DNA of 64,000 nt, taken from NCBI GenBank assembly GCA_016196225.1, contig JACPXZ010000029.1, positions 24,849-88,848 on the forward strand, given 5' to 3'. This document shows positions 44,806 through 47,737 of the stretch, one piece after another (position 1 is the first letter of the stretch; the number at the start of each line of letters is the position of its first letter). The notes below the pieces were generated by a model. That model worked only from the letters and a program-made list of their open reading frames with translations, had not been told where the DNA came from and made no database searches. The position numbers and the translations under genes were made by a program. The stretch is from Candidatus Peregrinibacteria bacterium (GTDB taxonomy: Bacteria > Patescibacteriota > Gracilibacteria > Peribacterales > Peribacteraceae).

Positions 44806-44881
44806 AGGCGCTTAGCTCAGTTGGTAGAGCGTCGGTCTCCAAAACCGAAGGTCGTAGGTTCGATCCCTACAGCGCCTGCCA
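44806..44881 (+). tRNA. tRNA-Trp (anticodon CCA), CCA encoded
   Basis: A manual cloverleaf fits: AGGCGCU-UA-GCUC-AGUUGGUA-GAGC-G-UCGGU-CUCCAAA-ACCGA-AGGUC-GUAGG-UUCGAUC-CCUAC-AGCGCCU-G-CCA. Confidence 0.95.
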
Positions 44882-44919
44882 CTCTCGCCGCACAGGCAAA
44901 AATCCGCTATAATGTTCTG

Positions 44920-45864
44920 ATGGAGATCAAAATCAGTTTCGAGTACCCCCGACCGCTGACTATTCTTGTTCTCGTAGGGATCGTCGTTGCGTTTGTATTC
45001 TCAATAGATTCCGCAGAGGCTCCGATACAGGCGGATGTTCGTTTATCCGATGATACGGTGTTCTATCGTAACGGTGAGGAGATGCCGCGTGGGGGACCGG
45101 ACGGGATGGAGATGACATCGACGGAGTACGTGCGGCGGCTGCGGCTGGAGCAAACTGTTCTTGCACGAAAGACAACGATTCTTCGATACCAATTGTCCGT
45201 GTTAGAACGAAAAGCAAAAGAAGAACGTTCCCCCGAAATTCGCGACGCGCAGCGTCGCCTGGTGGCGCTTTTTCATGACGAGCGGGCACTGGAATCCGCA
45301 ATGCTCCAGTCTCTCCGGGAAATGCAGGTTGCCCGTGATCATGCGCAGATTATTGCCGAGAGGACGGTCTATCCCGTGCAATCGTCTGCAGCACTCGCAT
45401 GGCCCATAGAGCCGATATACGGAATTTCCGCCGGGTTTCACGATGACGGGTACACGGAGCGGTTTGGTTTTGAACATCAGGCAATCGATATTCCCGCTCT
45501 GCAAGGGTCGACGGTCTATGCGGCGGCGGATGGGATCGTCAAAGAAGTCTCCGATCACGGACTCGGATTTAATTCGGTCACTATCGCGCATAACGGGGGC
45601 ATGGCGACGTTGTACGGACATGTACGGGAATTCCTCGTGGAGGAGGGGCAACACGTTAAGGCGGGCGATCCTATAGCCCGTTCCGGCGGCATGCCGGGGA
45701 CGCCGGGAGCAGGGTTGATCTCCACCGGACCGCATCTGCACTTTGAAGTCATTGCTCGTGGAGAGCCGGTGGATCCTTTAGTGGTCCTTCCATCGCGTTT
45801 CTTTCATGGGACATTGGTGCGTGTTCCTACGGAGCTTGGCGCTCGGCCAGACTTTTCTGCATGA
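44920..45864 (+). CDS. M23 family metallopeptidase (membrane-anchored, coiled-coil linker)
   Basis: The sequence reads ..HQAIDIPALQGSTVYAAADGIV..TIAHNGGMATLYGHV..GPHLHFEV... ATG 44920 lies just after the tRNA, with TATAAT 6 nt upstream. Confidence 0.85.
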   Translation: MEIKISFEYPRPLTILVLVGIVVAFVFSIDSAEAPIQADVRLSDDTVFYRNGEEMPRGGPDGMEMTSTEYVRRLRLEQTVLARKTTILRYQLSVLERKAKEERSPEIRDAQRRLVALFHDERALESAMLQSLREMQVARDHAQIIAERTVYPVQSSAALAWPIEPIYGISAGFHDDGYTERFGFEHQAIDIPALQGSTVYAAADGIVKEVSDHGLGFNSVTIAHNGGMATLYGHVREFLVEEGQHVKAGDPIARSGGMPGTPGAGLISTGPHLHFEVIARGEPVDPLVVLPSRFFHGTLVRVPTELGARPDFSA

Positions 45865-46732
45865 TGATGTTGGCACCCTCCTCGTGGTGGGAGACCAATT
45901 TGTGCTCGATACGTCCTTCCTCTGCCGCCGTTTCGATGATGATGGATCCAAATCCGAGGAGATAGCTCATAATCCCGACGTGGCGCGGTTTGACGTTGAG
46001 AATGGCGCGAAAACTTATTTGATTGGTATTGCGTCCGAGGAGATGCCAGTTCTGGAAGATAAGGCGTTTGTTAGTTACATAGATCACGTCGTATCGATAA
46101 TCGAGCCAGGCCTTCCAGAGGAAAATAAGTGCGAACAGGAGAAGGGTGACTCCAATGGATGTACGGATGGTGCTCGGAGGGAAGGTGAGGAAAACCAATA
46201 GTCCTGCTGAGGTTGCGATCAGTGGCGGGACCAGACCGAAAAGCAAAAACAGCGGATGGCGGGCAATGACATGTTCGATGGATTCTCCCTCAAATAGCCC
46301 CACTTCGTCCCGAATTTTTTGGTCTTGTCCGCTTGCTGCAGCCGCTTCGATGCGGCTGACTTTCAGTAAGCGAATGAGACGTGTCATCCGCAGAACGCGC
46401 AGGTACTGTGTATCGAGCAGGCCCATATAAAACGGGAGAATGGAAAAGAGGTCGATGATACCGAAGAAGGATATGAGATAAACCAGCGGTCGGGGCGCTG
46501 TGTAGATGCGCAGGATGTACTCGATGGTAAAGAAGATCGTTACGATGATTTCGATAACGGCAATGGTAAAGTGAAATTCTTTGAAAAATGTCAGTAATTC
46601 GAGCGGGAGAATCGCGATAGACAAGATGATCAGACCGATTAGTCCTATCGTAAAAAGACGTCCCAATCGCCCCTTCCCGTGTTGAAGAATATCCCATAGT
46701 TGATCCCGCAGAAGCGATCGGTTTCCAAACAT
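45827..46732 (-). CDS. Voltage-sensor-domain (S1-S4) protein lacking a pore, fused to a 2-TM + bacterial PH (bPH_2/YdbS-like) module
   Basis: S2 is FTIAVIEIIVTIFFTIEYILRIY, S3 is FFGIIDLFSILPFYMGL and S4 is LRVLRMTRLIRLLKVSR. There is no GYG-type filter. Two TM segments follow, then ..YRYDVIYVTNKRLIFQNWHLLGR..FGSIIIETAAEEG. Confidence 0.75.
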   Translation of the reverse strand: MFGNRSLLRDQLWDILQHGKGRLGRLFTIGLIGLIILSIAILPLELLTFFKEFHFTIAVIEIIVTIFFTIEYILRIYTAPRPLVYLISFFGIIDLFSILPFYMGLLDTQYLRVLRMTRLIRLLKVSRIEAAAASGQDQKIRDEVGLFEGESIEHVIARHPLFLLFGLVPPLIATSAGLLVFLTFPPSTIRTSIGVTLLLFALIFLWKAWLDYRYDVIYVTNKRLIFQNWHLLGRNTNQISFRAILNVKPRHVGIMSYLLGFGSIIIETAAEEGRIEHKLVSHHEEGANIIMQKSLAERQAP

Positions 46733-46738
46733 GTGAGG

Positions 46739-47737
46739 TCACTCTACCGCAGAGAAACGATCGGCGACAGATCGGGCGTATGCGTCGGTCATGCCGGCGA
46801 CAAAATCTTTGACGGCCTCGAGGCGCGTGCTTTCGCTCCGCTCCTCAAGGGCATGTATTTTTGGAGACGGGGTTTCCATAAACCATTCGCAAAGTTTTGT
46901 GATCAGCATTGCCCCCTCCTGCGTTTTGGTTTTGACAACCGGATTATCGTAGAGATGTTCCCAAAAGAAGGCGCGGATCATGTCGAGAGAGGCGCGGAGG
47001 GGGGTCGAGAAGATGATCGTATCCTTTGTCGAAGAAGAGCAGAGGTCGTCGATGCAGTGCGTGATGATTGCGCCCCGGAGGGATGTCCCGCGGCGGGCAC
47101 GCGATTCATGGAGATCCCGGAGAAGGGGAATGGTCGTCAGATCCTCGATCGAAAATAATTTTTGATCCATACCGTCTTCGCAGTCATGGGCAATGTAGGC
47201 GATTTCGTCGGCGAGATTGACGATTTGGGCTTCGAGTGAGAGAGGATGACCGGTATGTTTTTGTAGGCCGAGAAGGATTTCGCGGTTAAGGTTGAGACCG
47301 GGATACTCCGAGCTGTGTGTTTCGAGGACGGTGACAATACGCAGAGATTGTTCGTTATGTTCAAAGTGTCCTCCGTATCGGCGCATCCATGTATTGAGCG
47401 CTGATTCTCCCATGTGTCCAAAAGGAGGGTGTCCAAGATCATGCGCGAGAGCGATGCATTCACAGAGGTCTTCGTTGAGACCGAGAAAGCGGGCAAGATT
47501 GCGACTGATGCCCGCGACATCAAGGGTATGGGTCAGGCGTGTCCGATAATGGTCATCCTGCCCGGTGACAAAGACCTGCGTTTTTCCTTGTAATCGTCGG
47601 AATGCTTGAGTGGAGATGATCCGGTCCCGGTCGCGTTGAAAAGGGAGGCGAAAAATATCATCGGGCTCTTCGATAATGCGTCCAAGAATACCGCGAGCGG
47701 GTGTTGCGGAATCGAAAAGAAATTTTTCTTTCTGCAT
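46739..47737 (-). CDS. dgt: dGTP triphosphohydrolase-like HD-domain protein
   Basis: The sequence reads ..FQRDRDRIISTQAFRRLQGKTQVF..YRTRLTHTLDVAGISR..ALAHDLGHPPFGHMGE. Confidence 0.88.
   Translation of the reverse strand: MQKEKFLFDSATPARGILGRIIEEPDDIFRLPFQRDRDRIISTQAFRRLQGKTQVFVTGQDDHYRTRLTHTLDVAGISRNLARFLGLNEDLCECIALAHDLGHPPFGHMGESALNTWMRRYGGHFEHNEQSLRIVTVLETHSSEYPGLNLNREILLGLQKHTGHPLSLEAQIVNLADEIAYIAHDCEDGMDQKLFSIEDLTTIPLLRDLHESRARRGTSLRGAIITHCIDDLCSSSTKDTIIFSTPLRASLDMIRAFFWEHLYDNPVVKTKTQEGAMLITKLCEWFMETPSPKIHALEERSESTRLEAVKDFVAGMTDAYARSVADRFSAVE

Follow-up and report, generated by a model that had tools for sequence, protein, structure and literature searches.

Can a bacterial voltage sensor exist without a pore of its own? 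The question is raised by a gene of a Candidatus Peregrinibacteria bacterium, which lies on the reverse strand of a 64,000-nucleotide stretch of contig JACPXZ010000029.1 (the window; coordinates below are positions in this window, and residue numbers are those of the 301-residue protein). A first-pass annotation, made by reading the letters alone, had assigned to the open reading frame (ORF) at 45827..46732 the S1–S4 voltage-sensor domain (VSD) of a voltage-gated channel, followed not by a pore but by two transmembrane (TM) helices and a bacterial pleckstrin homology (bPH) domain. Here we examine each half of the protein, ask whether the missing pore could be an error or could be replaced by another conducting path, and arrive at a reading in which the protein would be a non-conducting voltage sensor.

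The N-terminal half is a voltage-sensor domain

The ORF is uninterrupted and encodes 301 amino acids (aa) followed by a stop codon. All of the segments first pointed out in its translation were recovered: S2 (residues 55–77), S3 (89–105), S4 (111–127) and the C-terminal stretches YRYDVIYVTNKRLIFQ... and ...IIIETAAEEG. Pfam family Ion_trans (PF00520) matches residues 25–127 with an E-value of 1.2e-12 and a score of 48 bits (cut-off 25). The match covers profile positions 2–110 of 241 and, because it ends at position 110, it is the sensor half (S1–S4) alone that matches. Ion_trans is likewise matched by all members of a 46-sequence family set (46/46), and a weak partial match to an NCBIfam model of voltage-gated K+ channels falls on the same residues. 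Comparison of the family profile to the PDB returned the voltage-gated K+ (Kv) channel Kv4.3 (7W6N, E=1.4e-20) in an alignment running from the pre-S1 helix (S0) to S4, in which FTxEYxLR is paired with FTVEYLLR, and IID...PFY with IID...PYY.

A full-length AlphaFold (AF2) model built from the 46-sequence alignment has a pLDDT of 90.9 and a pTM of 0.82. Superposition of the VSD of this predicted model (VIA) on the solved VSDs of Kv4.2, Kv4.3, Kv1.3, Kv2.1, Shaker and NavAb gave Z-scores of 15–16 and root-mean-square deviations (rmsd) of 1.6–2.6 Å over 122–125 residues. Over solved Kv and Nav VSDs at large the ranges are 13–16 and 1.6–3 Å over 110–128 residues, and every one of the 50 top rows is a VSD. 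The domain can also be aligned without gaps, over 120 aa and at 39% identity, with that of a canonical six-TM (6TM) Kv channel with a TVGYGD filter encoded in a genome of the same class, a similarity that stops at about residue 127. We conclude that residues ~7–128 are a bona fide Kv-type S0–S4 voltage-sensor domain.

Conservation was counted over 98 non-redundant family members. The gating-charge transfer centre F68/E71/D94 – which we take to be equivalent to F233/E236/D259 of Kv1.2-2.1 (Tao et al. 2010) – is kept in all of them: F68 and D94 are invariant (98/98 each), and E71, like the outer acidic residue E61, is E or D in 98/98. Also conserved are P100 and S88 (98/98 each), I35 (96/98), R75 (91/98), R115 (89/98) and I98 (87/98), so that both the hydrophobic plug (I35/F68/I98) and the countercharges (E61/E71/D94) are intact. 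S3 is the most conserved segment of the protein, with the lowest mean entropy (1.25 bits).

In S4 a basic residue recurs at every third position, six times in all (R112, R115, R118, R121, K124 and R127). Across the family the number ranges from 3 to 6, with a mode of 4, and a run of at least four in this register is present in 78/98 members; the periodicity, which the first-pass annotation allowed might be coincidental, is not. The length of S4 is polymorphic: 37/98 members are shorter by one helical turn, through a 3-residue deletion that removes the position of R118. Judged from these sequences, variation in S4 length and charge might serve to tune voltage dependence.

The same variation could be taken as a sign that the domain is a voltage-insensitive relic, kept as a mere membrane scaffold or oligomerisation unit for the PH module. 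VSD-like folds without voltage dependence do occur in other channel families, and here both the S4 charges and one S4 turn are variable. However, the residues whose only role is in charge translocation (F68, D94, E61, E71 and R115) are the most conserved in the protein, the in-register basic residues are kept in most members, and conservation of S3 and S4 exceeds that of the TM hairpin that follows. A relic is thus, in our judgment, quite unlikely.

The C-terminal half is a membrane-anchored PH module

In the AF2 model the S4 helix (residues 110–135) continues past the end of S4 and is followed by a short helix (137–144) and then by a strand (152–158); the linker residue E150 is present in 98/98 members. 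The strand is the first (β1) of a PH sandwich, which is interrupted by a hairpin of two TM helices (TM5 and TM6) and completed on the cytoplasmic side, where the PH domain comprises six β-strands and a C-terminal helix.

Recognition of this half by sequence depends on the relatives. Taken alone, the protein scores 16 bits against bPH_3, below the cut-off of 23, and does not match bPH_2 (PF03703) at E≤1. Among the relatives, 20/46 match bPH_2 (E≤0.01) and 17/46 match bPH_3. Three of them pass the curated 22-bit cut-off of bPH_2 (P0152 with 29.2 bits, P0165 with 25.6 and P0172 with 25), and some distant members exceed that cut-off alongside Ion_trans. A sequence profile of the C-terminal module found no relative in the PDB, so that its link to bPH structures comes from fold searches only.

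These searches agree with one another. With residues 138–301 folded alone, the top PDB match in Foldseek is the bPH structure 3dcx_B (TMt 0.70), followed by 3hsa (TMt 0.70–0.71 over these matches). Superposition of the same residues on 3hsa_A (VIA) gave a Z-score of 10.3 and an rmsd of 2.5 Å over 101 aligned residues, and the leading rows are all PH-like folds with Z-scores of 10–11. Residues 136–301 superimpose on ESM Atlas clusters with a bPH_2 content of 65–100% (TM(row) 0.63–0.71, rmsd 2.3–3.0 Å, 158–170 residues). Since the superposition extends over strand, hairpin and PH domain together, these three form one recurrent module. The C-terminal half is therefore a 2-TM + bPH_2 (YdbS/YdbT-like) membrane module, as was first proposed, confirmed at the level of the family and by fold.

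The module also occurs by itself. A standalone β1-2TM-bPH_2 protein of 213 aa, 23% identical to it (BLASTP, E=3e-9), is encoded elsewhere in this genome, and standalone bPH modules are found in about half of 61 sampled genomes of the class. Matches to these begin at family-profile position ~145–148, which is exactly β1. The 213-aa paralogue (contig C37, L011:1213-1854 (+)) has an acidic tail and lies directly upstream of a peptidyl-tRNA hydrolase gene. Other bacteria in the ESM Atlas clusters carry the β1-2TM-bPH_2 module joined to cNMP-binding, histidine-kinase (HATPase_c), PASTA, SHOCT and zinc-ribbon domains, a variety that points to a general role close to the membrane, in transduction or assembly. 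At E≤0.001 a search brought up no longer fused forms (528–2000 aa) of the C-terminal module, a negative that carries little weight. Prediction of self-assembly for four copies of residues 138–301 gave an ipSAE of 0.02, a value that bears neither way on oligomerisation.

No pore follows the sensor

The two TM helices after S4 occupy the place of S5 and S6, and it is here that a pore would be expected. A Pfam scan of the protein found no match to Ion_trans_2, and no K+-filter motif is present in any of the six frames of window positions 45000–47500. TM5 and TM6 are joined by 4–5 variable residues, with no P-loop; residues 184–187 of this loop are the most variable stretch of the protein (entropy 3.0 bits). 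Conservation is poor in TM5 and in the outer half of TM6, both of them apolar, and no conserved polar or charged residue was found within the membrane span of the hairpin in the 98 members. The protein thus has neither the re-entrant P-loop nor the selectivity filter of an S5–P–S6 pore, in agreement with the first-pass annotation.

Could the protein nevertheless conduct? A non-canonical voltage-gated conductance might take one of two forms: a P-loop-less pore made by an oligomer of TM5-TM6 hairpins and gated by the VSDs, or a VSD that is itself conducting (Hv1-like or omega-type). The topology, with S1–S4 followed by two TM helices, mimics that of 6TM channels; bacterial PH domains that form rings, as reported in the literature, could bundle the hairpins; and the databases label named relatives (Candidatus Peregrinibacteria, Uhrbacteria and Gracilibacteria) as 'ion transporter'. 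Against a hairpin pore stand the brevity and variability of the loop, the want of any conserved polar or charged residue that might line a conduit, the absence of both Ion_trans_2 and a filter motif, and the occurrence of the same hairpin in standalone bPH_2 proteins and in kinase and cNMP-binding fusions. Conduction through the sensor is opposed by the intact hydrophobic plug and by S1, whose core (residues 26–44, 98 members) lacks a conserved Hv1-type acidic residue and has Ser at position 38 in 96/98. We regard a conductance of either form as unlikely. A more specific version, in which a PH ring would bundle the hairpins into a VSD-gated, P-loop-less conduit and so constitute a new voltage-gated permeation device, is slightly less probable again. 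If true, it would mean that a voltage-gated pathway had evolved independently of S5–P–S6, and it would reveal a role for bPH_2 membrane modules.

The fusion defines a family of its own

A search of 5.8 billion proteins returned ~90 full-length relatives of 296–367 aa, with E-values from 1e-153 to 1e-43. These are followed by a sharp gap in score, after which come ordinary Kv channels at E~1e-18. An exhaustive search of representatives at 50% identity gave 32 clusters below 1e-30, and roughly 50 with full-length coverage. When one genome per species was scanned for the signature of the C-terminal half, 61 loci were identified, nearly all of them in genomes labelled Peribacteria, Peregrinibacteria, Gracilibacteria or Altimarinota; 60 of these are complete, and in every one (60/60) a single open frame spans profile positions ~3–305.

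This uniformity bears on the simplest objection to a pore-less sensor, namely that a Kv gene has been truncated or frameshifted by an error of sequencing or assembly, as the first-pass annotation itself had cautioned. Nothing but the missing pore speaks for such an artefact. VSD and PH module share one reading frame. The last 38 nucleotides (nt) of the coding sequence are also part of a convergent M23 peptidase gene, so that there is no space downstream for a pore exon. As noted above, a filter motif is present in no frame, and the single-ORF layout recurs not only in the 60 complete, independent loci but in more than 90 metagenomic proteins. Together these data exclude a hidden frameshift or truncation, to which we attach next to no probability. 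The VSD-bPH family is real and selected.

It is also confined. The full-length architecture was present in 6 of 401 genomes sampled from the phylum, all six from one class, and in 6 of 61 genomes sampled from that class; the family is therefore lineage-restricted and patchy. Both parental modules, the 6TM Kv channel and the standalone bPH_2 protein, are common in the same class. In a tree of 149 VSDs, a branch separates the 98 fusion VSDs from 51 Kv-type VSDs, with weak support (SH-aLRT 58) from an alignment of few columns. Going by these sequences, the simplest reading is that a single fusion event most likely took place in the Peribacteria/Gracilibacteria lineage. Probably, the sensor of a local 6TM Kv channel recombined with the locally abundant standalone bPH_2 module.

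The searches also brought up proteins at the margins of the family. A distant full-length member (P0272, L077:8001-8942; ~31% identity) lies among genes for a sortase, Obg, carbamoyl-phosphate synthase and a ketoacyl synthase, a gene content that is unusual for genomes of the Candidate Phyla Radiation (CPR). A scan for its taxon with the protein itself as query gave no match, and the Obg beside it has its best full-length match in Peribacteria/Patescibacteria, at 41–42% only. Many of the matches are short VSD-only proteins of about 120–190 aa (for example P0185, P0201 and P0208); one of them, from a genome of the same class (G406:C62:2275-2664), sits in a frame that is free of stops for 162 aa. 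Either genuine bacterial proteins made of a VSD only, or genes fragmented on short contigs, may account for them. Finally, a genome from another family of the phylum (G292) encodes a 275-aa 6TM protein (L013:334-1161 (-)) with a clear VSD and a pore region that lacks a K+ filter of the TVGYG type. It may be a divergent channel or one for ions other than K+.

A possible coupling of S4 to the PH domain

The arrangement of the two halves suggests how the protein might work. We picture a six-TM membrane protein in which the bPH_2 module – β1, TM hairpin and PH sandwich – takes the place of S5–P–S6. A change in membrane potential would move S4. S4 is predicted to remain helical without a break as it enters a short linker, which leads on to β1 of the PH sandwich, while TM5 and TM6 would clamp the PH domain to the inner leaflet of the membrane. 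Given this continuity on one side and the clamp on the other, displacement of S4 would be expected to move the PH domain and hairpin or to change their orientation. The output switched in this way would be non-conductive, and could consist of a change in the oligomeric packing of the PH domains or in the binding of a partner or of lipid at the inner leaflet. A non-conducting voltage sensor that relays S4 motion to a PH module is the reading we favor; modelled as it is from predicted structure, we consider the mechanism somewhat more probable than improbable.

Several points weigh against this reading. We infer both the voltage sensitivity and the output of the predicted sensor from sequence and models, and the structures of the fusion protein are themselves predictions. 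For the function of the bPH_2 module the literature offers mere hints, of bacteriocin immunity or export: YdbT-like proteins have been placed in leaderless-bacteriocin loci, and soluble bacterial PH domains have been reported as oligomeric rings. Furthermore, no conserved neighbor that might hint at a partner was found among the family loci.

Genomic context

The coordinates of the gene, its parts and its neighbors are collected in Table 1. Upstream, on the same strand, the stop codon (TGA) of an HD-domain gene is followed by 6 nt (CCTCAC) and then by the ATG of the VSD-bPH gene (window positions 46733–46741); a Shine-Dalgarno sequence is not obvious. On sequence grounds this junction suggests that the two genes are co-transcribed, possibly with coupled or Shine-Dalgarno-independent initiation. 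An HD gene lies upstream in 25/61 family loci and the convergent M23 gene is present at 29/61, in both cases restricted to the close Peribacteria subfamily; the neighbors of distant members are unrelated to either. Accordingly, HD (dGTPase) and M23 genes were ruled out as family-wide functional partners, and we read their arrangement as inherited, lineage-specific synteny and not as a functional unit.

Table 1. Positions of the VSD-bPH gene, its protein segments and the adjacent genes in the 64,000-nt window.
Feature	Position	Strand	Basis
Whole coding sequence, VSD-bPH fusion protein	45827..46732	(-)	ORF list and translation
Voltage-sensor domain, residues 7–128 (S0 7–18, S1 21–46, S2 48–78, S3 82–104, S4 110–128)	46349..46714	(-)	Ion_trans match, AF2 helices, VIA superposition
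S2, residues 48–78: outer acidic E61, charge-transfer-centre F68 and E71, R75	46499..46591	(-)	98-member conservation, Kv4.3 alignment
S3, residues 82–104: D94, I98, P100	46421..46489	(-)	98-member conservation
S4, residues 110–128: R112, R115, R118, R121, K124, R127	46349..46405	(-)	Direct reading
Fusion-specific linker, residues 129–151	46280..46348	(-)	AF2 secondary structure, E150 conservation
β1 strand of PH sandwich, residues 152–158, before TM hairpin	46259..46279	(-)	AF2 models; 3DCX/3HSA alignments span hairpin
TM5-TM6 hairpin, residues 160–214, apolar, variable	46091..46255	(-)	AF2 helices 168–183 and 188–214
Cytoplasmic bacterial PH domain, residues 215–299	45836..46090	(-)	Foldseek, VIA, ESM Atlas matches
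Upstream HD + HD_assoc (dGTPase-like) gene, same strand	46739..47737	(-)	Pfam matches, junction sequence
Convergent M23 peptidase gene	44821..45864	(+)	ORF list; Pfam Peptidase_M23 7.1e-25

Beyond the locus, the genome of the uncultured host (1.09 Mb, 97.7% complete) is typical of CPR bacteria. It contains exactly one VSD, that of the gene described here. Its only pore is a 323-aa, two-TM K+ channel (contig C33, L010:991-1962 (-)) that matches Ion_trans_2, has the filter TSVGFGD, ends in a long helical domain that could be assigned to no known family, and lacks a voltage sensor. One VSD and one sensor-less K+ channel in so small a genome raise the possibility that the VSD-bPH protein acts in trans, as a detachable sensor or auxiliary subunit of the separately encoded pore. 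However, the two loci are unlinked and lie on different contigs, and a single-query search found no homologue of the channel in the fusion carriers G182, G147, G214 and G314, whereas one was found in G105, which has no fusion. Co-occurrence in related genomes being absent by this search, the pairing was rejected; we hold a function in trans to be very unlikely.

Comparison with known systems

Reviews of voltage sensors from 2024 and 2025 list non-channel VSD proteins from eukaryotes only, with no prokaryotic example, and recent reviews describe Hv channels as absent from bacteria and archaea. No description of a VSD-bPH fusion was found in the literature searched. What is new here is a voltage sensor without its own pore in a bacterium; the other known proteins of this kind (Hv1, voltage-sensing phosphatases, TMEM266 and SLC9C1) are all eukaryotic. 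Through this family, bacteria may be able to convert membrane voltage into an output other than ion flow. If this is so, then electromechanical coupling outside channels would extend to bacteria, a protein of ~300 aa would offer a minimal system in which S4 motion drives a soluble domain, and the widespread, uncharacterised bPH_2 membrane modules would gain a first functional handle. The hosts are ultra-small CPR bacteria that probably live as symbionts, and little is understood of their membrane energetics.

The closest structural kin of the N-terminal half are the VSDs of Kv and Nav channels (bacterial 6TM Kv, Kv4, Kv2, Kv1/Shaker and NavAb), with which it shares the S0–S4 fold, the charge-transfer motif (FTxEYxLR, IID...PFY) and the S4 arginine ladder. 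These channels possess an S4–S5 linker, S5, pore helix, filter and S6, whereas the fusion protein is without all of them. For the C-terminal half they are the YdbS/YdbT-type bPH_2 proteins (PF03703, formerly DUF304), which have in common with it a module of β1, TM hairpin, PH sandwich and C-terminal helix but have no voltage sensor; positions of the module motif that are kept in the fusion are E150, H159-P160, W209xD211, D215, R223, G233, N246, G262 and T268. Among PDB folds, residues 138–301 are matched best by the soluble bPH proteins 3DCX and 3HSA (bPH_1/DUF1696), but these lack the TM hairpin after β1 and have no detectable sequence similarity to the fusion.

In overall design the protein resembles Ci-VSP/TPTE, Hv1, TMEM266 and SLC9C1 of eukaryotes, where a single S1–S4 sensor likewise leads, by way of S4, straight into a cytoplasmic or membrane effector that is not a pore. 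It differs from each in being bacterial and in its effector, which is a bPH_2 membrane module and neither a phosphatase nor a coiled coil nor a transporter. S4 is not followed, as it is in Ci-VSP/TPTE, by PTEN-like phosphatase and C2 domains: Pfam and NCBIfam gave no such match, and the C-terminal fold is PH-like. The mid-S1 Asp and C-terminal coiled coil of Hv1 are absent too, the C-terminus being a TM hairpin and PH domain. By analogy, the nearest functional counterparts of the VSD-bPH protein would nonetheless be the eukaryotic voltage-sensing phosphatases and Hv1, in which S4 also runs directly into a cytoplasmic element.

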